64,000 bases of DNA from an uncultured Methanosarcinaceae archaeon (GTDB lineage: Archaea > Halobacteriota > Methanosarcinia > Methanosarcinales > Methanosarcinaceae). Below, in pieces: positions 29,564 to 48,561 of the stretch; the first letter of the stretch is position 1; each line of letters starts with the position of its first letter. A model generated the notes under the pieces. That model worked only from the letters and a program-made list of their open reading frames with translations, ran no database searches and was not told the DNA's origin. A program made the position numbers and the translations under genes. Location of the stretch: the NCBI GenBank assembly GCA_963727895.1, contig CAVSHT010000012.1:1-64000 (forward strand), in the 5' to 3' direction.

Positions 29564-30940
29564 TTAGAATGCTAGTCCAAGTTCTTCGAGCTTCTTTCTT
29601 GCTCCGTCGTATACCTGCATGTACTCATCTGTTGGAGTTACAGTCTTTACGTCGTAGCATTCCTGGAACGTCTTTCCTGCTGGAGCGCTTGCATAATTCT
29701 TCTCATATAGAGCTACAAGCTTGTCAAGGATAACATTCACTTCTGCAATGTCTACTCCTGCCGTTGCCCTTGCAACTTCTCCCATCATTCTAGCTTCCAT
29801 ACCTGTGGTCTTATCAGTCACAACACCCTTTGCCGAAGCCACACCTGAAAGGATTTCTCTTCCAGACGCTGTATCAGTTATTGACTGAGCTGACGCCTCA
29901 AGCAGACACATCTCAGTACATGGTCCTGCACATGGATAATACTGGTTTCCTGAGAGAATATCTGTAAATTCAGAAATAGTTGCACATGCCCATCCTGCAA
30001 TCATCAAAGTTTCCCTTGTGTTTGTTGACCCCCAGCGTATGTGAACAGGTCCATCAAGATGCCAGTTTGCGTTACTCATAACAACTGAATTGATATGAGT
30101 TGCAATGTCAACAATTGTTGTCTCCTCAATGCCGCCCGCATATCCTCCGAAAATCGGCATCTGTTCATCCATAATTATGTCGCTGTTTGCAGTATAGTGA
30201 GCAATAACTGAAATTGCATCCAGGTCGATCTTAAGTTCACAGAGTTGTGAGACCTCATGGCTGTCCGTACAGGTCATTCCGCCAGCACAATCAGCGGAAA
30301 TGTTTCCCTGAGCGGACAGGGAGGTCTCTGGGCCCTAAACAGCCATGCCAGGCTTACCAGCCATGGCGCAAGCATTCTTAATAAGCCTTGTTTCGGTCTT
30401 TGCAGCAAGAACTTCATACGGGCTCTTTGGAATAGGAGCTTTCCCTCTCACTGTGGTCATAACACCATTAACGATAGTGTCTACTTCCTTTTCCAGAGCA
30501 TAGCTCAGGTGAACAGGCATAAACACCTCTTCTGAAATTGGAGATCCAGTAGGGCCACCCTGCACAATTGGCTTTCTCTTGTCAGCAACATTTCTTTTCT
30601 TAACGTTTACTGCTTCTCTGCCTGTACCGAGCACAAATTCCTTCTGGACATTGTTGATTGCATCCCAGATTTCATCTTCTGTGTACTTTACTATCCTGTG
30701 TGTATCAGTGCAGTAAATTCCGCAGTCAAGGAGCATCTCAAAGCCTGCATTGAAGAGTTTTTCCATCATGTCCTTATCTGTTGGGACAAACTTTCCCTTG
30801 AAATCAATTCCATACTTCTGCTTGAGCTCCATAGCCTTCATCGGAATCTTCATAAGATCCCAATCGTCCAGACTACACTTTTCTCCTACTTTTGCCCTGT
30901 CATAGAAATCATAGCAATCAAAGGACTTTCTAAATGTCAT
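29564..30940 (-). CDS. mtmB: monomethylamine:corrinoid methyltransferase, 458 aa, pyrrolysine at codon 202
   Basis: In-frame TAG at 30335-30337 (GKPGMAV-O-GPETSLSAQG) joins the two ORFs with no frame change. Confidence 0.97.
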
Positions 30941-34459: not shown

Positions 34460-34963
34460 TTATTTTTCCTTGTTTTGTTCAATATATCGATCTTTAGATT
34501 CCTTAAGTATACTAATTGCTGTGTCAAGATCTTTCCAGCCAATAACTTTTACTCTTTTGTTTTCTAGACTTTTGTAATTTTGGAAAAAATGAGTGATTTC
34601 TTTGAATAGATGCGGTGGAAGCTGATCGACTGTCTCAATATAATTCCACATAGGATCGTTCTTTGGAACACAGAGAATTTTTTGATCTCTTCCTTTATCG
34701 TCCTCCATGTCAAACAATGCTATAAGATATACATCTATCATACAACCTGGAAAGGTAGGTTCCCAGGTTAAGACCATGGCATCTAAAGGGTCACCATCAA
34801 GTGCCAGGGTTTCGGGGAAAAAACCATAATCAGAGGGGTATACCATTGAAGAAGAAAGCATTCTGTCGTACTTAATCACTTTCTTTTCTTTATCATACTC
34901 GAATTTGTTTCGGTTTCCTTTTGGAATCTCAATAAGTACACTTTCAACCTGTCTTTCAGTCAT
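34460..34963 (-). CDS. ppa: inorganic pyrophosphatase (family I)
   Basis: IEIPKG..NKFEYD, DGDPLD. Confidence 0.93.
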   Translation of the reverse strand: MTERQVESVLIEIPKGNRNKFEYDKEKKVIKYDRMLSSSMVYPSDYGFFPETLALDGDPLDAMVLTWEPTFPGCMIDVYLIALFDMEDDKGRDQKILCVPKNDPMWNYIETVDQLPPHLFKEITHFFQNYKSLENKRVKVIGWKDLDTAISILKESKDRYIEQNKEK

Positions 34964-34977
34964 ATCAATACTTCCTA

Positions 34978-35238
34978 TTATTTCTTGTTTTCAACTACAT
35001 TATAACAACCACACCAATGAAATAAAAAAGGCATGATTCTGATACGAAAAAGTTCCTTTAATTGTTTCCACATTAGCTTTTTATCGATATTTACCTCTGT
35101 ACGAAAAGTCAAAATGATTTTCCCAAAAGTGGCAATAATTAACTCAATAATGGCAACTGATAAGCCTAGCTTTTGCGGGACAATGCTTGTTAATAATATC
35201 AAAGAATCTTTAATAAGTAGAATAGCATCCGCTTGCAT
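34978..35238 (-). pseudogene. possible cation:proton antiporter N-terminal remnant
   Basis: Hydrophobic KLGLSVAIIELI segment, then degenerates; 86 aa. Confidence 0.35.
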
Positions 35239-35481
35239 GAACTACCTCTATATGTGGTAGGAGTCATTAGCTGTACAAGCGGTTCAAGGCAGACTCCATT
35301 GCCTATTCAATATCATTTATTACTGCATATATACTTAAAATTTGTTATATAAATACATTAAATAATAAAAGTAAAATATATATTGTCAATTAACTTATCA
35401 ATTTTATAAATTCTCTTAAACTTCATAGTGCATATATGAGAGCTGTTAATAGTGAGTTGTTAATATCTGATAGCTACTTAT

Positions 35482-36220
35482 GGCTTTGATAATTAACTAT
35501 AGTTATATACTATTAGAAAGTATATTTCTTCATGGACTGCCCCAGATGCAATAGTTCTAATCACAAAAAGAATGGTATAGTTGGCGGGCGTCAACGGTAC
35601 AAATGCTCTGATTGTGGCTATAACTATACAGTAGAGTTAAAATCAACTGCTTTTTCTGCTTCTGTAAAAAGACAGGCTTTACAACTCTATCTTGAAGGAT
35701 TGGGCTTTCGCTCAATAGGACGATTTTTAGGGGTAAGTCATGTTTCTGTCCAAAAATGGATAAAGAAATTTGGTCAAGAGTGAGAGAACCTAAAAAGTGA
35801 AAGTGAGATATCTATTGTTGAAATGGATGAGATGCACACTTACATCGGTAACAAAAAAATATTGCTGGATCTGGATTGCTGTTGATATAGCTGGGAAAAA
35901 GTTCATCAACTGCTCTTTTGGTAACAGAGGAACAGAAACTGGAAAACTACTCTGGGAAAAATTGAAGAAAAAAGAGATTGGAGAAGTGATGACAGATCAC
36001 TGGAGGGCATATGCAGAGTTTCTTCCAGAAAAGAGTCATACTCAATCCAAAGCAGAAACATTTACAGTTGAGGGATATAACAGCATATTGAGGCATTTTC
36101 TAGCAAGATTGAGACGAAAGACAAAGTGTTATAAAAAAGTCTTGAAATGCTAAAGTACTCGGTTATTATATTGATGAAATACAGAAATAAAGAGCTAGAC
36201 TATGTTTAGTTAACAATGCC
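35482..36220 (+). mobile_element. IS1-family element
   Basis: Terminal IRs; 8-bp target duplication CTACTTAT (35474-35481, 36221-36228). Confidence 0.93.
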
Positions 36221-36430: not shown

Positions 36431-38058
36431 ATGTATGGAATAGCACTTGATCTGGGTACCAGCGGTTTTAGAGCCCAGCTTATCGATCTTAACACGAAAG
36501 AAACCTTAAAGACAGTCATAACAATGGGTCATCCCCTTCCTGGGGGAAATGTTATGGACCACCTGGATTTTGCAATCACAACAGGTGAGGATGTGGCTCA
36601 TGCGGTAATTATCGAAACCATCAGGAGGATGTTCCTGCGGTTCGATGTTGACCTTTCCAAAGTGGAACGGCTGGCAGTCTGTGGAAACCCTATTCAGCTT
36701 TCCCTTTTCCAGAATATCGAAATAAGGGATCTGGCTTATGCAGGAGAAAACAAGCAAAAGAAGCTTGGAGTCCAGAATGTAAAAAGAGATGCCCGTGTAT
36801 TTCCTGCTTCCGAGATTTTCGGGGAAAAAGACTTACCAAACTGTGAAGTTATTGTGCCCTCCTGCAATCAAACACGAGATTGGAGCTGACGCTCTGGCTA
36901 TGATGCTTGAAACTGATTTCCTTATCCAGTCCGAACCTTCACTTGTCACGGATTACGGGACAAATGCCGAAATGGCTCTTAAAGTCGGGGATAGGATTAT
37001 CACCGCAAGCGCGGCTGCAGGACCTGCAATTGAAGGACAGGGTATAAGCTCAGGCATGCTCGCAAGCCCGGGTGCGATCTGTGACGTAAAACCTGAAGGA
37101 CAGTACTGGAGAATTATGGTTCTTGACAGGGAAATGGAAAAACAGAATGCTTACCTTATCCATCCGGTTACAGGGGAGATAAAGAGAGTCCTACGGGTAC
37201 GAGGCAGTTGGAATCACCGGCACAGGAGTTATCTCGGCCTTTGCTCTTGCACTCAAAAGCGGGCTGATTGAAAAATCTCCTAAACTTCCGAACGGAAAGC
37301 TGATCCTGGGCCCTGGAATTGAGATCACTGAGAAAGGATGTGGAAGAAGCCGGAAAAGCTATCGGGGCAATCCGGGCTGCTCATATGACTCTGATCGTTG
37401 AATCCGGGATTAAGTACGAAGATCTGGAGTACGCATATATGTCAGGAGCCTCCGGAGCCTATGTGGACGCTGAAGATTCCCGCAGGCTCGGAGCCGCACC
37501 GGGTTATGCAAAAAAAATTGTCCAGTTCGGAAATACCTCGCTTGCGCTTGCTCGGGAACTTGTGCTTGATAAATCCAGGCTGGATGACGTAGTAACGATT
37601 GCAAAGAAAATTACTGCCGACCACCTGATGATGGCAACCAGCGATGACTTTCAACAATTTCTACCTCTGCGAACTTTCCTACTGGACCCAGGGCATGCCT
37701 CTTGAGATGTACGACCAGATGCTTGAACTCTATGGCCTGCCTCCTCCTCCCCAAAACTCTTGAACACGTAAGCATCGAAAAACGAGTCAGCAAAGACATA
37801 GAACAGGTAGGACCAGGTGGGCTTGCCATTCTCAAAGAAATAGGCATAATTCTGGAAGTCCCAGTGGAAAAGTGTATCTACTGCAAAAAATGCGTAAAAG
37901 AATGTCCTGAGTCTGCTCTTGAAATCGTAGAAATAGACGGCAAACGAATCGCAAAATACGACAGCCAGAAATGTCTCGGCACAAGCTGTCACCGCTGTGT
38001 TTCTATCTGCCCTGAAAGTGCCATCGATATAACAAAACTGAAAATTACAGCAAAATAA
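36431..38058 (+). CDS. ramA: methylamine corrinoid protein reductive activase; about five apparent +1 frameshifts
   Basis: ALDLGTSGFR, TDYGTNAE, C-terminal ferredoxin-type CIYCKKC...CP; breaks near 36860, 37182, 37333, 37647, 37745. Confidence 0.9.
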
Positions 38059-38440
38059 TTTTATGGTGGATTAAACTTCCACTCATTTTTTTAAGTTTCG
38101 TTTTTCTTAATTCACGGAGTTCATCTCTAACTTAGCTAATATTTTTCTAACTTTTAAAATTGATTTAATTCTCTCGAAGAAATTAAGATTAAAAACAAGA
38201 TCAAAGTATAATTTTAAAAATCAATACAAGTTTAATTACATAATAAATTTCTATGTATAAAGAGAATTAAAGTCCTGAAACTGGAAAAGTAGGTTTATTT
38301 CTGGAAACATCTTCGCATAGTTTGCCGGGGCAAAGTGGGAGCTCTATAAACGATATAAAATTTAATATCTCAGATTAATGTAAAAAATAAATCAAATCAG
38401 AGTTCAAAAGTTTTCAAAAAGGGTTTTCAGAACTCAAGTT

Positions 38441-39220
38441 TTAGAGTACAGAATACAGCATTGACGCTGTTCCTATTCCCAGGGGTTCAGCTATAAGTTG
38501 CACATCATATTTTTTTCGCAGATCTTCAGAAATTGCGTAAGGAATTCCAGGGGTGGAAAGTACACAATTCTCCGAAAGTACAGCTTCAGGAATCGTATTT
38601 GCACATGGGGTTGCCTCGAAAATGGTGGAAAACTTTTTTGGAATTGCAGGGTCGAAAGGAATCATTTCAAGCTTTGAGGTAGTCTTCTTCAGAAGTTTTT
38701 CATCGGCATCATATCCATAAACCTTGAAACTTTTGTTCACAAGATGGGCTGCTCCGGGAAAACCTACCTTTCCGAGTCCAATAACAAGTACATCCTTTGA
38801 TTCGGCTATCAGGTTCCTGGAAGCAATCTCAGCATAGATTATACCTGTGCATGGCTGATTGTTGGCGATTTTTCCGTTTTTGATGTTATGTGCAAGAAAG
38901 GTGTGGTCATCAGCCATAAGGATAATTTCGGCTTCATTCTGTACAGCTTCGTAATAGCCGCTAACATCCGGCGTATCTGTAATAAAGCTGTCAAATCCAA
39001 AATACTGTGTAATTGCATTCAGAGATGCCGAAAAATTACCTATTATCCCGTTTCCTGAAGTTATAGGCACTATACCTACTTTTTCAAAACACGACAAGGT
39101 ACCGTAGAGATTTTCGCAGATTTGTTTTATATCAGATCCTGTTGCTTTCTTTACAGCAGAATCAGCTTTTTGAAGCTGTTTATTTATATTTGCCAAATCA
39201 TCGGGGGTTAAGAGTGCCAT
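38441..39220 (-). CDS. pylD: pyrrolysine synthase
   Basis: MALLTPDDL, MADD, GLGKVG, EPLGIGT; 259 aa. Confidence 0.96.
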   Translation of the reverse strand: MALLTPDDLANINKQLQKADSAVKKATGSDIKQICENLYGTLSCFEKVGIVPITSGNGIIGNFSASLNAITQYFGFDSFITDTPDVSGYYEAVQNEAEIILMADDHTFLAHNIKNGKIANNQPCTGIIYAEIASRNLIAESKDVLVIGLGKVGFPGAAHLVNKSFKVYGYDADEKLLKKTTSKLEMIPFDPAIPKKFSTIFEATPCANTIPEAVLSENCVLSTPGIPYAISEDLRKKYDVQLIAEPLGIGTASMLYSVL

Positions 39221-39299
39221 TTTATTCCTATTTCCTGTTTTTAGAAATTTTTAGTTTTTTAACCTTTTTTAATTCGTTTTCCAGCGCCTCTATTCATTC

Positions 39300-39656
39300 T
39301 TAAGACACAACTCCTAAACGATTTTTCAGAATCGAGATCCCTTTACATTTTTTTTCCTCGGCTTCTTCCTTATCTTTGCCCCAGAAAATCAGGGTAAATA
39401 CCTGTTTTTCTCCTTTGCGAAGCAATATCTCAATGCCAGGTTCTTCATAGAATTTTTCGTAGTCATCATCCTTGGAAAAAGCCAGGTTTCCCACAGGAAC
39501 AAGACCTCCATTTTTTTCGAGTATTAGGTGTTCGTAAATACAGTATTTTTCGCAGATTCCTTCTATATCAAGCCCTTTTACTTTTTCAACGGGAGAATAA
39601 GATTTTTGAAGCTGCTCATTTATATTTGCCAAATCATCTGGAGTTGAGGGTGTCAT
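39300..39656 (-). CDS. chimeric ORF: PylD residues 1-36 fused to PylC C-terminal ~82 aa
   Basis: Direct alignment to neighbouring pylD and pylC; own GGAG RBS; uninterrupted 118 codons. Confidence 0.8.
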   Translation of the reverse strand: MTPSTPDDLANINEQLQKSYSPVEKVKGLDIEGICEKYCIYEHLILEKNGGLVPVGNLAFSKDDDYEKFYEEPGIEILLRKGEKQVFTLIFWGKDKEEAEEKKCKGISILKNRLGVVS

Positions 39657-39729
39657 ATTATCTCCATTTTCTGCTTTTGGGCATTTTTAATTTCTTTAAT
39701 CTTTTTTAATTCGCTTTTCAGGCTTTATT

Positions 39730-40827
39730 TCATCCTTCATATAGCGCTTCGAAACGATTTTTCAGAATTGAAATTCCTTTGCTTTTATTTTTCTCGGCTT
39801 CTTCTTTATCCTTGCCCCAGAAAATCAAGGTAAATACCGGATTTTCTCCTTTGCAAAGAAAAATCTCAGTGCCGGGCTCTTCATAGAATTTCCCATAATC
39901 GTTTCCCATAGAAAGTACCTGTTCTCCTACGGGAACAAGAATTCCGTTTTCTCCGAGCATTAAGTGTTCATAAATACAATATTTATTTTCAGGAAGAGCA
40001 CTTATTTCCTCAATACCATCAGTAAAAGCGCGGAAAAGGAGTTCTATCAGGTTAATCCCTGATGAATAATAAACGGTTGTTGGGGTCTGGCTTGGAAAAC
40101 GAGCATCGATTTCGATTACTCTAAGCCCTTTTGGGCCGGATATTGCTTCTACATCCATAATTCCTTTCAAGGATAAATTTGCTGCAAGAGTATAGGATAT
40201 CTGCCTGAAGTGAGGTTCAGAAGGAAGAGGGGTAACCGTGTGGCAGTCATAGGTTTCGTCTATATGGATCAGTGTTTCTTTTACCACAGCAAAATGGTTT
40301 CCATCTCCTATAACTTCGAGAGATACCACTTCTCCTTCTACATATTCCTCGACCATCATTCCAGGTTCAAGGTCTCCAAGTTCCTTGTCATCATAGATTA
40401 TTCTGGCTCCAATACTGCTGCTTTCACAGGGAGGTTTTACAAAATAAGGTGGTTCTGAAGGTTTGTCCTGAGGAGTAGGAACTCCTATGGACTTAAAATA
40501 ATCTTTTGAACGTTTTTTGTCCCTGCTTATCCAGTAAGCTTCAAAATCAAAGAGTACCGGGCAGAAGAACTTTTCTTTTATTGAACTTAGAAATTCGATG
40601 CAGACCAGGTTTTCGTTCACAGGAAGTAACGCATCTACGCTTTTTGAGAGTTCAAGAAGTTTTTCAGGTTCTTTTATCACATCAAAACAATGAAATTCAT
40701 CCACATAATTCCGGATAAGGGCTTGCGGATTTTTATCTACCAGAACTACTCTCATTCCTGCTTTTTTAGACAGATATGCAGCTTCGAAGCCCTGGAGTTT
40801 CCCGCCTACAAGACAGATCGTCTTCAA
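39730..40827 (-). CDS. pylC: 3-methylornithine--L-lysine ligase
   Basis: TTG start, KTICLVGGKLQGFEA, ATP-grasp EIDARFPSQTP. Confidence 0.95.
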   Translation of the reverse strand: MKTICLVGGKLQGFEAAYLSKKAGMRVVLVDKNPQALIRNYVDEFHCFDVIKEPEKLLELSKSVDALLPVNENLVCIEFLSSIKEKFFCPVLFDFEAYWISRDKKRSKDYFKSIGVPTPQDKPSEPPYFVKPPCESSSIGARIIYDDKELGDLEPGMMVEEYVEGEVVSLEVIGDGNHFAVVKETLIHIDETYDCHTVTPLPSEPHFRQISYTLAANLSLKGIMDVEAISGPKGLRVIEIDARFPSQTPTTVYYSSGINLIELLFRAFTDGIEEISALPENKYCIYEHLMLGENGILVPVGEQVLSMGNDYGKFYEEPGTEIFLCKGENPVFTLIFWGKDKEEAEKNKSKGISILKNRFEALYEG

Positions 40828-40828
40828 G

Positions 40829-41880
40829 CTAGCACCCCAAAACTGCCTCAAAGTCAGCCTGCCTGGCAGGCTCCATACCCATAGTCTCAAGCCTTTGGAT
40901 CACACTTTTTATATCCCTGTCTCGTTCTTCAAGGTCGCGGTCATAGTTTGCAACACCTTCCAGTTGAGAATCGGGGGAAGAATCGAAGTAACAATATTTG
41001 CCCCTGCATTTAGGCGATGAACCATTCCATCAATGCCTTCAAGGTCAAGGGATGCAGGTATAAGGCGTTTAGGGAACATTAACCTGAGAACCGAGATAAT
41101 TTTCAGTTCCGAGAGATTTGATTTCTCTCTGAAATTCTCAAGAGGGGTTCCTTCCTGGGGTAAAAAGGTCATAACTCTGACCATATCTGGGTCATTTGAT
41201 TTCATACCTCTCAAGGACAGAATGGTAGACTCGATATCGTTTCCAACACCTGTAAGAATCCCATCTTCTACACAATATCCCTGTTTTTTAGCAAAAAGGC
41301 GTGCATTGACACGTCCATCGAATGACTGTCCAACTCTTAGTTTCCTGTAGAGGTCAGTGTCATAAGTTTCTTGATAAAGAGCCAGGAAATTTGCTCCTTT
41401 TTCTTTAGCTTTAATAAGAGTAGCATTATCCATTACGCCTGGAGAAATCATTATGGGAAGCCCAAGTTCTTCTTTTACTATCTGGACAAGTTCAACGAAC
41501 CTGTTTGGATCTTCATAATAATAGGGATCTTCTCCCATGGTCAGATCAACCATATGAAAACCTGCTCCTTTCAAGGTTTTGCAGGTTTCTTTTATTTCTT
41601 CTGTGGTTAGACGATAGCGATTGATTTCGTTTCCACAGTTATAATAACAAAAAGAACATTGATTTTTACAGTAAGTGGAGAAATAGATGAAACAATTGAG
41701 AAATACTCTGTTTCCAAAATAGTGATCTCTTACTTTTCGCGCTGCAGAGTAAAGTTTTTTCAGATATTCTTCGGATTCAAGGGAGAGAAGCATCCTCAGG
41801 TCGTCGTCAGATAGTTGATAACCTTGAATTATTCTTTCCCCTAACATGTCAAACTCTTCAAGTGCCATTTTTTGAACCAA
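40829..41880 (-). CDS. pylB: 3-methylornithine synthase (radical SAM); apparent 1-nt deletion near 40975; TAG stop
   Basis: CKNQCSFC motif; restoring one base gives 350 aa ending DFEAVLGC-TAG. Confidence 0.93.
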
Positions 41881-42188
41881 AATTTCACCCTCTCATATGT
41901 TTTTCTAAACTTTACGGCTCAATTGGGGCCGAATTGCCATTTTAATCATTTTTTTAGCTTATTTTGCCATATTGAATTTTATCATCCCGTTTTTTCTATT
42001 TAATTTTCCAATTTTATTTTGCCATTTAGTTTTTCTATTTAATTTTGTCATTATATATTTTTTTGAACGATTGCCTTTCGATTTTACCATTTATATTGCC
42101 ATTTTCTCTTTTGCCATTCAATTATAATGTTCTAATTCTCTTTTATCCGTTTTTAGCTGCTCCAGATTCTTTAAACAAATTTTTTAGC

Positions 42189-43521
<1,333 letters not shown>

Positions 43522-44809: not shown

Positions 44810-46312
44810 TTAGCTCAGGTAGATTGCAATATAGTCGATATGTAAAGTACCTTGTTGATTATTTTTTGTAATAACTTTCAAGTTAAATATAAGGTCTGAA
44901 GATGAAGCTGGTGATGTTTTAAACGTTTTAGTATCATAAAGAACTCTCCAGCCTGTTGGGAAGTTGGTTATTGAATCAAATTGTACTCCTGGAAGTGACA
45001 TTTCCATTGTTGGTTCCTTAGAGGATTCTTTATCGTACTTATAAATGATCATAACTGTTGCTTTAGAAGGAGTAGATTTAAACTCCATATAATTATTGAA
45101 TTTTAGTGTTAAGTTAATATTTTCGTTTTCTCCTATGTGTTTTGAAAACTCATTTTTAGGGTTATAGGAAATTAGTTCTGTATTTGTAGAGCTTTCTGGA
45201 AGTATTGATGGGTTCACATAGTTACTGTCCTCAAGGTTTGCAGGATCAGGGGACGGAGATAATGCTATATCATTATATGTTCCAGTAAATGTATCAAAAC
45301 AATACCATTGTTTCAGCTTCATTGCACTTCTAATCAAACTATAATCAAAATTACTTTCTGTTCCAAGACCAGCACCTATTATGGTTTTACTTACATAGAG
45401 CCTTTCAAGTGTCTTATCGCCGCTAGGGAGAAAAGAGAAACGTACGTGACCAGAGCCTTGAAGATATTGAACAGTATAATCTTTCCCGTATTTGAGTCCT
45501 TTATCTTGTGCAATTTCATTGAAGTATTCAATCCAGGCATCCGGGTATTTTGTAGCAATTGTCAGGCTAAAAGTGTTGATATTTGACCCCGTGCTATCAT
45601 ATACAGGCTCTGTTTTATATCCTGCCAGTTGAAGTGGAATTATAGTATTTGAGGAAATAGAATAGTGCTTGCCTGAAATTTGGACTGCCTTAATTATGAC
45701 TGTGCACTTGCTTTTGTCAGTTTCATCTTCTTCTATAGTGATTGCAGGCGACTGTCTCATCACAGAGCTTTCATCGTTTGCAAGAATTAAGGCTCCATTT
45801 TCATACCTGAAGATCTGGTTTGGATACTGCTTGTTTTCAGGACAGGTGATTCCCCCACAATCAATAGTAAAGTTATCAGGTTCTATTTTTTGGGAGGAGC
45901 TGCGTGGTATTACTGTCATTGCATACCTCTCGGTATTCACATCAAGTTTTCCATTACATTTTGAAGGTTCTAAAAAAGGAATGTCACACCCTCCCATATT
46001 AACTGGACCAGATATCGAAATACTACGACTCAAATAATTATTTGATTCCATTAGTTTGGAAAATATATCAACACTTGTTTTCACTCCCACCATATCGTTC
46101 CATGTATCGTGCATATGATTCATTTCGGCATCATTTTTCCACTCTGGAACATATTCAAGCTTGACTACTGAAATTATTGTAAATACGAGAGCTAGGAGCA
46201 ATACTGCTGCGATAGCCGTTGCAGCAGCAGATTCCGAATTGAAAAAACAGGATAAGCTTTTTTCTTTCCTGCTTTTTGTCTCTCTCCTTGTTGTAATAGT
46301 TTTCGGGAACAT
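44810..46312 (-). CDS. large pilin-like protein with probable class III signal peptide
   Basis: NSESAAATAIAAVLLLALV..YVPEW; YENGALI; paralogue of the adjacent gene. Confidence 0.65.
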   Translation of the reverse strand: MFPKTITTRRETKSRKEKSLSCFFNSESAAATAIAAVLLLALVFTIISVVKLEYVPEWKNDAEMNHMHDTWNDMVGVKTSVDIFSKLMESNNYLSRSISISGPVNMGGCDIPFLEPSKCNGKLDVNTERYAMTVIPRSSSQKIEPDNFTIDCGGITCPENKQYPNQIFRYENGALILANDESSVMRQSPAITIEEDETDKSKCTVIIKAVQISGKHYSISSNTIIPLQLAGYKTEPVYDSTGSNINTFSLTIATKYPDAWIEYFNEIAQDKGLKYGKDYTVQYLQGSGHVRFSFLPSGDKTLERLYVSKTIIGAGLGTESNFDYSLIRSAMKLKQWYCFDTFTGTYNDIALSPSPDPANLEDSNYVNPSILPESSTNTELISYNPKNEFSKHIGENENINLTLKFNNYMEFKSTPSKATVMIIYKYDKESSKEPTMEMSLPGVQFDSITNFPTGWRVLYDTKTFKTSPASSSDLIFNLKVITKNNQQGTLHIDYIAIYLS

Positions 46313-46380
46313 TTTCCAAACCTTTGAGTGTGAGTTTTATTATTCCTTAAGTTTTTACCTAATTCCACATTCAATTCAGT

Positions 46381-47431
46381 TCAGATTAAGCCGATTCCAG
46401 GTTCAGCCTTGATTACAGTCTCACTTATATACAGCCTTTTGATGATATCAGAATTGGTATTACTCCCGCTATTTCCTTTGCTTGTATCGGGTGCTGCAGT
46501 GAAGGTAAAACGCACATTGTTGCCAGTAAGCCTTTCAATGTTGTATTTTTCTGAGCTTATTTTTGCATCTTCCATTGCTTTATTTAGATACTGAATCCAG
46601 GCTTCTGGATAATTTGAAGTAATTATCATTATAAATTTGTCTACACTCATTGGCTGACTTTTCTTACTTTCATCGCCCGAATTATCTGTCTCACTATCAT
46701 AATGGGAGACGTAATTAATTCCTGTAAGACGGAGGGAGCATTCGCTATTTGATGAAATTATTTCAGGGAGAACATGAGGGTTCTGACAGACACTTATCGT
46801 ATTTATTGAAATATTACTCATTATGCCCATTGTTTGCTGTCGTGGAGAAACGGAGCGAAGGATAGAGCATCATGACTGCTTGGTCATCTTGGTCCAGTAT
46901 TAAGGCTCCGTTTTCATAACTGAAAACCTGATCTACATAGTGGCCATTCTGAGAAGTGTAAGTAACGGTACCGCAATCGATAGAGTTGACTTTTGGAGTG
47001 GTATCAGGGTTTACTATTATGCTTATTACGCACTTACCTTTGTTTACAGCAAGAGTTCCACTTGACTTCATTGAGACTATGAATGGAATGTCTCCGCCTC
47101 CCATATGAATAGGTACACTTGTTACTAAACCAGAGGCTGTACAATTTGAATACAAGGAATTAATTGGGGTACAATTAGAGCTTGAAGCTAGGACAATTGA
47201 CATCACATCTGCTCTTAACTTAAGTTCTGTCATGTCTTTCCATACATCATCCATATGAGCGTATTCGGCATCGTTTTTCCACTCAGGGACGCAGTCTACC
47301 CATGCAATGGTGAGTACTGAAAATATGATTCCCAATAGCAATACTGCCCCAATGACAGTTGCTGTTCCAGATTCAGAATTGAAAAAAAGCTCTTTTTCTG
47401 ATCTGGCTCTCTTTTCTTTGTTTTTTTTCAT
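46381..47431 (-). CDS. pilin-like protein, frameshift near 46815
   Basis: NSESGTATVIGAVLLLGI..VPEW; the two ORFs together align with 44810-46312 (YENGALI, YPEAW, RLYISET). Confidence 0.65.
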
Positions 47432-47472
47432 TTATTTTCAAACCCCCTGCCTCCAACTCCTTATTCGAGTCA

Positions 47473-48561
47473 TCACTCCGCATGGATCGCGATAAAGTCA
47501 ACCCAACCAATTTTATTGTCACTGTTTGCAATACCATATGCTGAAAACCTTACTGTAAGATTTCTGAGTTCTTCAGTTGTATCTACCCAAGTTTTCAAAT
47601 CAATGAGAGCCAAACTATTATTGCAAGTAGTCGTGTCTTTATATAGAGGCATACCAGGCCCAGTAACAGTTATCCATTTGTCAGGGTTTTTATCGTTAAT
47701 TTCAAGCGTCAAGTCTTTCTGACTGCTGTCATGTGCTGTATATATTATTTTTAAAAGAACTTCTTTTAATGGATTTTGAAGATCCAGTCCATATTGATCT
47801 ATCCCAAAGGTAAAATTTTCACTAGACCATTTGCCCTGATACATCTGGCAATCAGTCTGAAGGTTATCACCAATTCCGTCAGTTAGTTCGGTGTGTAGCC
47901 ATTCATTTGTAGAGTTATCATATACACTTCCATAGGGATGAGGAGTAATCCAGTAAGGAAAATTACTTTCCCTGTTACCCTTTTGAAGCACTACTTTCTG
48001 GATCACCTGCTCGGATGGAGTGTCCACGAAAAACATATCTATGTCATCAGTAGTTTTGAGGTCGAGCATCTTCGTTGGGTCTTTTGGGTATGCTGGATCT
48101 CTCGTGCTATTAGTGTTAATTATGATACAATCCCCTAGCCTGAATACATTGTCACTGAAATAAGTCCCATCTGAATTTTTGGATTTGAAAGTGCCATCCG
48201 AGTTTTTGACTCTAAGAGTGCCATCCGCGTCTTTGACTTGAAAATTAGACCTGTCATATGGAGGAACAACCTGCAATCCATTGACGTAAAGTATTATTTT
48301 GATGGCGGACAGGTCAATAGTTTCTCCCCCACTGTGGACGATTTGTATCTCATTAGTATCTGCGTTAATATTTTCACGCAGATCGGTATTCGGAGTATGT
48401 TCCGGCTTCACAGCTCCAGGATCTGAAAATACTGCCAGGCCGATCATAGAAAAGGCTATTACAACTATACTTATCATGAGCAGTTGCCCATATACTTCTG
48501 AAACTGCCCGACAGTCCTGGCAAAGTAACCTGCGCTTCTGACCCTCCAGGATAAAAGCCAC
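47473..48561 (-). CDS. type IV pilin (minor/large)
   Basis: RA/VSEVYGQLLMISIVV class III signal; HSGGE motif. Confidence 0.75.
   Translation of the reverse strand: MAFILEGQKRRLLCQDCRAVSEVYGQLLMISIVVIAFSMIGLAVFSDPGAVKPEHTPNTDLRENINADTNEIQIVHSGGETIDLSAIKIILYVNGLQVVPPYDRSNFQVKDADGTLRVKNSDGTFKSKNSDGTYFSDNVFRLGDCIIINTNSTRDPAYPKDPTKMLDLKTTDDIDMFFVDTPSEQVIQKVVLQKGNRESNFPYWITPHPYGSVYDNSTNEWLHTELTDGIGDNLQTDCQMYQGKWSSENFTFGIDQYGLDLQNPLKEVLLKIIYTAHDSSQKDLTLEINDKNPDKWITVTGPGMPLYKDTTTCNNSLALIDLKTWVDTTEELRNLTVRFSAYGIANSDNKIGWVDFIAIHAE

Follow-up and report, generated by a model that had tools for sequence, protein, structure and literature searches.

A selectively maintained chimeric open reading frame, formed by tandem duplication, in the pyrrolysine operon of a Methanosarcina clade

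In the available portions of the sources cited here, the pyrrolysine (pyl) genes are given in the order pylT, pylS, pylB, pylC, and pylD (PMC11467909, PMC2933860, PMC12626013). The insertions reported in bacterial pyl clusters are unrelated genes, namely, an mttB homologue and a RamA-like protein (PMC2933860), and the reported duplications comprise either the whole cluster, in one methanogen, or a distant extra pylC (PMC3941956). We analyzed a 64,000-nucleotide stretch (the window) of contig CAVSHT010000012.1 from an uncultured Methanosarcinaceae archaeon (assembly GCA_963727895.1), in which the genes follow the usual order of the canonical Methanosarcina pylTSBCD operon beside ramA and mtmB. 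In contrast to the canonical operon, a sixth, chimeric open reading frame (ORF), here called X, lies between pylC and pylD on the minus strand (39300-39656), with pylB, pylS, and pylT upstream and ramA and mtmB downstream. X is an apparently undescribed, selectively maintained chimeric gene in the pyl operon of one Methanosarcina clade that includes cultured Methanosarcina barkeri. An ORF located between pylC and pylD was nowhere mentioned in the literature that our search covered; most subscription papers lay outside its scope, and a passing mention may exist.

X lies across the seam of a tandem duplication. A global alignment of positions 39549-39984 with 39113-39548 gave 343/438 identities with two gap columns per copy, and both families of repeats in the region had the same spacing of 436 (39293-39548 versus 39729-39984, 79%; 39111-39270 versus 39547-39706, 77%), which bears out the 436-bp duplication claimed in an earlier first-pass annotation. 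The reading frame of X starts with ATG and runs for 118 codons with no internal stop. A GGAGAT motif (39660-39665) lies 3 nucleotides ahead of the ATG, and its pairing with the 3' end of this genome's own 16S rRNA was calculated at -6.4 kcal/mol, so that the stop-free 118-amino-acid ORF with its own ribosome-binding site, as first annotated, is upheld. Residues 1 to 36 matched PylD at 23/36 positions and residues 37 to 118 matched the C terminus of PylC at 57/82, reproducing exactly the counts originally made by hand. The genome contains a single pylC, a single pylD, and a single X, and two neighbors are joined in frame with both parents retained on either side. Chimeric genes are known to be born at the junctions of tandem duplications, and X resembles them in having been born in frame with both parents intact.

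The junction had been placed at a GAAAA microhomology. This motif was found at the junction and in both parent genes of this genome. However, in pylD it is private to this genome, being absent from all 22 of the other pylD genes shown; codons 36 and 37 of the pylD in the window are GAA AAT and differ in 22/22 others. The motif is therefore not supported as the original junction and is probably secondary. We attribute it to gene conversion in this genome, which also slightly raised the identity counts given above. Three states near the C terminus of X are private to this genome's X and pylC, and two states in the leader are private to its X and pylD.

The first-pass annotation had proposed a search for the fusion in other genomes. 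X with the same junction between pylC and pylD was found in 5 of the 50 genomes with a pyl match (G000, G005, G017, G025, and G032) in a genus set of 59; G052 could not be judged because its contig ends inside pylC. In the other genus genomes, the operon showed no sign of a broken X. In a sample of other genera of the family, 91 of 116 genomes gave a match, each once and to the PylC part only, and X was present in 0/91. X was never found outside the pyl operon in the genus set or in the sample of other genera. A protein search gave 15 matches among 24 candidates; 12 of these, each standing for a further protein cluster, were full-length chimeras of 118 to 130 amino acids with 65 to 96% identity and the same CEK/xCIYEH junction. 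At locus L004, X is letter-for-letter identical to AKB49418.1/WP_155398071.1 of cultured M. barkeri Wiesmoor, a complete-genome record, and the C-terminal stretch of the adjoining PylC is the same as that of crystallized PylC 4FFL. Records of the M. barkeri orthologue are labeled "hypothetical protein" or "Pyrrolysine synthetase," and the latter label is a mis-transfer.

A related-locus search of contigs and metagenomes, which is insensitive, gave one locus from genome contigs (L032, with X and spacers as in L003 and counted once) and two from metagenomes, L045 with X at the same junction and position and L046 with an ordinary pylC-pylD pair. A profile search of 50%-identity representatives returned 13 matches, of which one was an X cluster and the rest were PylC or fragments of either PylC or PylD, and an Atlas feature search returned only unrelated clusters below 0.9. 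Many X proteins (L003, L004, L005, L045, and P0004-P0012) carry an 11-residue acidic tail of the EGINS...IEKD type, which arose through read-through into the old spacer. The X proteins of this genome and of L002 end at the PylC stop position. A degenerate second PylC C-terminal segment with small indels lies far from the pyl operon at L047:4064-4387 (G042:C47); it begins near the place of the X junction, has a close protein relative of 85 amino acids (P0037), and is not clearly X or pylC derived. Two well-assembled genus genomes of more than 90% completeness (G021 and G043) gave no pylC or pylD match; either they may have lost the ability to make pyrrolysine or the assemblies have a gap there.

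Selection on X was estimated with a codon model from six DNA loci (L001-L005 and L045), which represent about four independent lineages; the protein set favors sequences whose frame is open. For the PylC-derived part (residues 38 to 115), the ratio of nonsynonymous to synonymous substitution rates (dN/dS) was 0.355 (p 1.8e-6 against 1; approximate 95% range, 0.25 to 0.5), indicating purifying selection. The ratio was 0.32 without this genome, 0.355 with the converted stretch masked, and 0.48 (p 0.014) when only the first 43 codons were used, and the signal is thus robust to gene conversion. Of the changes whose resulting state does not occur in the cognate pylC, 53 were nonsynonymous and 40 synonymous, a nonsynonymous fraction of 0.57 versus 0.75 +/- 0.04 in neutral simulations, none of which (0/400) was as low. 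Stop hits numbered 0, with about 5.4 expected from the number of changes observed, and 5/400 simulations had none. The Shine-Dalgarno-like motif of X was kept in 6/6 loci, and its pairing with the 16S rRNA 3' end of the genome had duplex energies of -6.4 to -7.4 kcal/mol; a weaker motif at pylD than at X was considered and rejected, as the duplex energies overlap. Purifying selection was not seen for residues 2 to 36 of the PylD-derived leader, where dN/dS was near neutral (0.84; p 0.62; range, 0.5 to 1.5) and rose to 1.35 without this genome. The comparison with the parent segments that had been suggested at the outset therefore divided the gene: against 0.176 for the same codons of pylC, the PylC-derived part is constrained, which disfavors the earlier alternative of a neutral relic for this part, whereas the PylD-derived part, against 0.219 in pylD, is not.

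An AlphaFold2 model gave a predicted local distance difference test (pLDDT) score below 50 for residues 1 to 30. The remainder was modeled as a sheet and a long C-terminal helix, with confidence for residues 38 to 114. The predicted model matched the C-terminal subdomain fold of PylC (Foldseek E 3e-7; root mean square deviation, 2.4 over 81 columns), and a second comparison of the model with PylC gave a Z of 6.7 (deviation, 2.9; 92 aligned). The same arrangement occurs as a separate domain elsewhere, in the phosphoglucomutase C-terminal domain (Z 6.6). The X sequence aligned to residues 277 to 362 of 4FFL only (E 1e-30). Residues 37 to 118 thus resemble the C-terminal subdomain of PylC (TIGR03909; 4FFL/4FFM) in sequence and predicted fold, but X is without the N-terminal and ATP-grasp domains of PylC. 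PF02655 was found in pylC and no Pfam family in X, and the scores for X in the window (70.7 bits) and for P0016 (61 bits) fell below the whole-protein cutoff of TIGR03909 (248.3). X also lacks S177, E179, and D233, which are named as active-site positions in the available part of PMC11467909. PylD (TIGR03911; PDB 4J43 and 4Q39) donated residues 1 to 36 and the ribosome-binding site. However, X holds only these 36 of 259 residues, and no TIGR03911 or PF21455 match was found for the N-terminal substrate and NAD-binding domains. Because it is without the ATP-grasp core and nearly all of PylD, X cannot catalyze the PylC or PylD step, and the initial proposal of a real, noncatalytic chimeric gene from a tandem duplication holds.

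A family alignment of 12 lineage representatives (28 sequences collapsed at 90%) showed that the strands and the last helix are kept throughout. Among PylC-conserved sites, 25/47 were unchanged in all 12 representatives and 13/47 were released; among sites variable in PylC, 11/33 were unchanged in all 12. The release was clustered, with 6/9 sites in PylC 301-311 (window numbering) versus 7/38 elsewhere, at a nominal p of 0.008 for a segment chosen beforehand in the first-pass annotation, whose claim of changes gathered at PylC GEQVLSMGN is confirmed at the family level. The released patch comprises PylC 301-311, 324-325, 335, and 358, with changes mostly towards polar residues, and the C-terminal part of X was more hydrophilic than the PylC segment at 6/6 loci. 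Family-wide shifts include E292K (12/12), F335S (10/12), F358L (10/12), M306K (8/12), and C324Y (8/12); E292K, M306K, C324Y, and F335S are among those that add to the hydrophilicity of the domain.

Trees were built from the best 30 of 50 matching genomes, and the species tree omits L006, L013, and L025, which are truncated at contig ends, as well as L032 and L046. The six C-terminal parts of X formed one clade against all pylC C-terminal parts (bootstrap 82), indicating that X arose once. Its synonymous tree length was 3.4 neutral changes per codon, versus 3.7 for the same pylC codons at the same six loci. X is therefore as old as the clade, and the gene cannot be called young, as it had been at first. 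In trees of the nonduplicated pylC-5' and pylD-3' parts, the X-less loci L015, L014, and L012/L017/L019 were nested among X-bearing loci with support of 87 to 100. A derived GGCG pylD leader was found in 8/8 X-less loci of the clade, in spacer 2 of 5/6 X loci, and in spacer 1 of 0/6, and outside the clade in 0/35 loci (L066 not parsed). The heads of spacers 1 and 2 were not separable, and the tails alone separate them. The simplest reading of these sequences seems to be that X was ancestral in the clade and then was deleted at least three times, and X would be dispensable because of these apparent losses. X may instead have spread by horizontal transfer, for which it can be said that X favors a four-lineage tree other than that of pylD, at an approximately unbiased test p of about 0.05 only.

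Several minor features accompany the spacers and the flanks of X. Spacer 2 is lengthened to 154 to 216 nucleotides in L045, L005, and L004 by short tandem units of about 16 nucleotides. In L002-L005, L045, and X-less relatives, the derived leader ATGGCGATAAAA puts an in-frame upstream ATG (MAIK-M...) ahead of pylD, and X in L003-L005 has a similar upstream ATG. Contigs of sequencing runs X1 and X6 showed about 90 to 92% identity over ramA, pylD, and the 3' part of X (window about 36500-39570) and 95 to 98% over pylC, pylB, and pylS (window 39540-43470), a step that suggests a recombination breakpoint in or near X.

In the ancestor of one Methanosarcina clade, a single old tandem duplication spanning the pylC 3' end, the spacer, and the pylD 5' end set the PylC C-terminal subdomain behind the ribosome-binding site and start codon of pylD. 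Selection holds open the frame and preserves the sheet-and-helix core, with the PylD-derived leader drifting and the PylC-conserved patch released. We propose that X shares a transcript with pylBCD and that its translation product would be a small, acidic, free-standing domain, which has presumably shed a surface used inside PylC. On present sequence evidence it is best read as a free, noncatalytic PylC C-terminal subdomain with a borrowed start rather than as a two-handed scaffold. Truncated paralogues such as microProteins and pseudoenzyme subunits are known to modulate their parent enzyme, and X is analogous in being a single noncatalytic domain beside its parent gene. Most speculatively, X might likewise act on PylC as an accessory or decoy subunit that damps or tunes pyrrolysine supply and hence UAG read-through, to which we assign a probability of roughly 0.4. 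The wider proposal makes X a sixth pyl gene, a lineage-born, noncatalytic regulator derived from the C-terminal subdomain of PylC. By binding to the biosynthetic enzymes it would control pyrrolysine supply posttranslationally, and hence how often UAG is decoded as an amino acid and not as a stop; this is rather unlikely.

Several observations weigh against an action on PylC. PylC was reportedly described as a monomer in a 2012 structure paper, and a decoy would have no known PylC-PylC surface to occupy. E301, Y310, E320, and T332, which are invariant even in distant PylC, vary in X. The constraint on X is below that on its parent (0.355 versus 0.176, p 0.025), the estimate comes from the six loci and about four lineages named above, and it could reflect no more than staying folded and in frame. 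The pathway operates in the absence of X in eight relatives inside the clade and in most of the genus. No translation evidence was found, the sole expression hint being a low-depth contig from an RNA library that may be DNA (X19 record 11, 39511-39975; it spans the pylC end, the spacer, and the junction). Rows for pyl genes are absent from the available supplement text of PMC9124975 and PMC10846266, and the full expression tables could bear on translation.

In the available parts of two sources, pyrrolysine supply is described as tuned, with pyl overexpression harming the growth of M. acetivorans on trimethylamine, and the basis of differential tRNA-Pyl charging is described as open (PMC12626013, PMC13663744). 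The pyl operon has been treated as a five-gene cassette, and X is a concrete candidate for posttranslational control of pyrrolysine supply. X occurs in cultured M. barkeri and is absent from most of the genus. If the proposed role is true, M. barkeri, the species on which most study of the system has centered, has carried an unnoticed regulator in its pyl operon. X could also be relevant where M. barkeri genes are used to engineer pyrrolysine production. Were it a passenger, X would still offer a clean prokaryotic example of a gene born at the junction of a duplication, one whose origin can be dated and whose history includes gene conversion and repeated loss.

The foremost rival to an action on PylC is that X is such a harmless passenger, functionless but kept open to avoid polarity on pylD and kept folded to avoid the cost of misfolding in a well-expressed operon, which would persist until removed by deletion. 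Polarity is known in archaeal operons. The apparent repeated loss fits this account, with X-less loci nested among X loci and the GGCG leader shared by X-less clade loci and spacer 2, as do the neutral leader and a dN/dS about twice that of the parent. However, deletion is easy across a direct repeat, and even so X has persisted through about 1 synonymous change per site in several separate lineages. The unchanged sites counted above, both PylC conserved and PylC variable, and the clustered rather than even release also speak against it. We regard a passenger as a quite possible, although not the preferred, explanation.

X could alternatively have acquired, through its changed surface, a new partner or ligand that has nothing to do with PylC binding, such as itself as a dimer, PylB or PylS, or a pathway metabolite. 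The family-wide shifts go beyond mere decay, and many members have the read-through C-terminal tail. In addition, an Atlas model of M. barkeri X (residues 1 to 114) aligned with PylC-family models (TM 0.67), which as a lead only hints that the borrowed helix completes a self-contained fold. Against this, no partner or ligand was indicated by any analysis, several of the shifted sites may be single early changes inherited by all, and X was confined to the pyl operon in the genomes searched, which together leave a new partner improbable.

The two-handed scaffold raised in the first-pass annotation, in which PylD-derived helices would grip PylD and the PylC-derived domain would grip PylC in a channeled assembly, has in its favor that both parental pieces occur in all members and that eight leader positions are invariant in a 15-sequence alignment. 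However, the leader evolves at a dN/dS of 0.84 (1.35 without this genome) compared with 0.22 for the same pylD codons, its residues 1 to 30 are modeled at a pLDDT below 50, L16, invariant in PylD, is replaced by P, S, or F in many X proteins, and M. barkeri-type members have leader deletions. A grip on PylD through this end is thus highly improbable. A dead relic whose constraint was imported by gene conversion from pylC and pylD is hardly tenable and largely refuted already: conversion is seen at both ends of X in this genome, but the signal persists with this genome removed or masked and in changes absent from the cognate pylC (0/400), and the X copies group in a separate clade, marked by diagnostic sites that would have been lost under conversion.

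An assembly artefact, by merging of two strains or repetition of a read, can be dismissed despite 84% completeness and several 1-nucleotide indel errors in neighboring genes, since the junction recurs in four other species-level genomes (one near-closed) and in a named complete-genome record and is bridged in independent runs. One independent DNA run contig crosses it without a gap (X3 record 18, 39437-39687, 5 differences, more than 100 nucleotides on each side), in a sequencing-run search in which 20 of 24 rows contained a small share and none contained half. The original view that the repeat is not an assembly duplicate is therefore sound.

Table 1. Features of the pyl operon and of chimeric ORF X in the window
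Feature	Position	Strand	Evidence or remark
pylD, intact	38441..39220	-	TIGR03911, 359 bits (cutoff 150)
Repeat copy 2: X 3' part, 79-nucleotide spacer 2, pylD 5' end	39113..39548	-	Repeat alignment
Chimeric ORF X, 118 amino acids plus TAA stop	39300..39656	-	ORF, alignment, orthologues
PylC-derived part of X, residues 37-118: beta-sheet and long C-terminal helix, purifying selection	39303..39548	-	57/82 versus PylC; dN/dS 0.355 (residues 38-115); fold match to PylC 4FFM/4FFL
Likely gene-conversion tract between X and its own pylC, X residues 107-112	39321..39338	-	Three states private to this genome's two copies
Released segment, X residues 57-67 = PylC 301-311 (window numbering), EQVLSMGxDYG helix-loop	39456..39488	-	Family alignment
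Repeat copy 1: pylC 3' end, 73-nucleotide spacer 1, start of X	39549..39984	-	Repeat alignment
PylD-derived part of X, residues 1-36: near-neutral evolution, residues 1-30 low-confidence prediction	39549..39656	-	23/36 versus PylD; dN/dS 0.84; pLDDT <50
Shine-Dalgarno-like GGAGAT of X, inherited from pylD	39660..39665	-	Kept in 6/6 loci; duplex -6.4 to -7.4 kcal/mol
pylC, intact; TTG start inferred from sequence	39730..40827	-	TIGR03909, 549 bits (cutoff 248)
pylB; apparent 1-nucleotide frameshift near 40972, not in a close relative's contig; end coordinate approximate	40842..41880	-	TIGR03910
pylS; apparent 1-nucleotide frameshift near 42603, not in contigs of three relatives' runs	42189..43461	-	NCBIfam
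pylT, tRNA-Pyl, CUA anticodon	43698..43769	-	Intact

The coordinates of the operon are given in Table 1. The 1-nucleotide frameshifts in ramA (five places, window 36431-38058), pylB, and pylS are missing from close relatives' contigs and are assembly indel errors, which bears on the reading of other broken-looking genes of this genome. A decaying pyl locus was rejected, as the frameshifts are absent from the relatives' contigs, pylT is intact, and mtmB reads through a TAG at codon 202. In mtmB (29564-30940, minus strand), this in-frame TAG is followed by a PYLIS_1 match (30238-30337), and tblastn found one copy only of the gene in the 84%-complete assembly. A promoter and terminator scan gave counts like those of shuffled sequences (16 versus 14.3 and 8 versus 4.9), and Rfam gave no match within the pyl operon. 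An IS1-family element with InsA- and InsB-like ORFs (35532-36153, plus strand) lies between ramA and the mtm cluster. A fluoride riboswitch (35251-35312, minus strand) lies directly ahead of an 86-amino-acid ORF (34978-35238), for which NCBIfam gave no match, and a gene for inorganic pyrophosphatase (34460-34963). Upstream of fdhD and pylT are four ORFs (44810-48561, minus strand), three of them with hydrophobic, pilin-like N termini; the one that was scanned had no NCBIfam match, and we take the group to belong to a pilin-like family.

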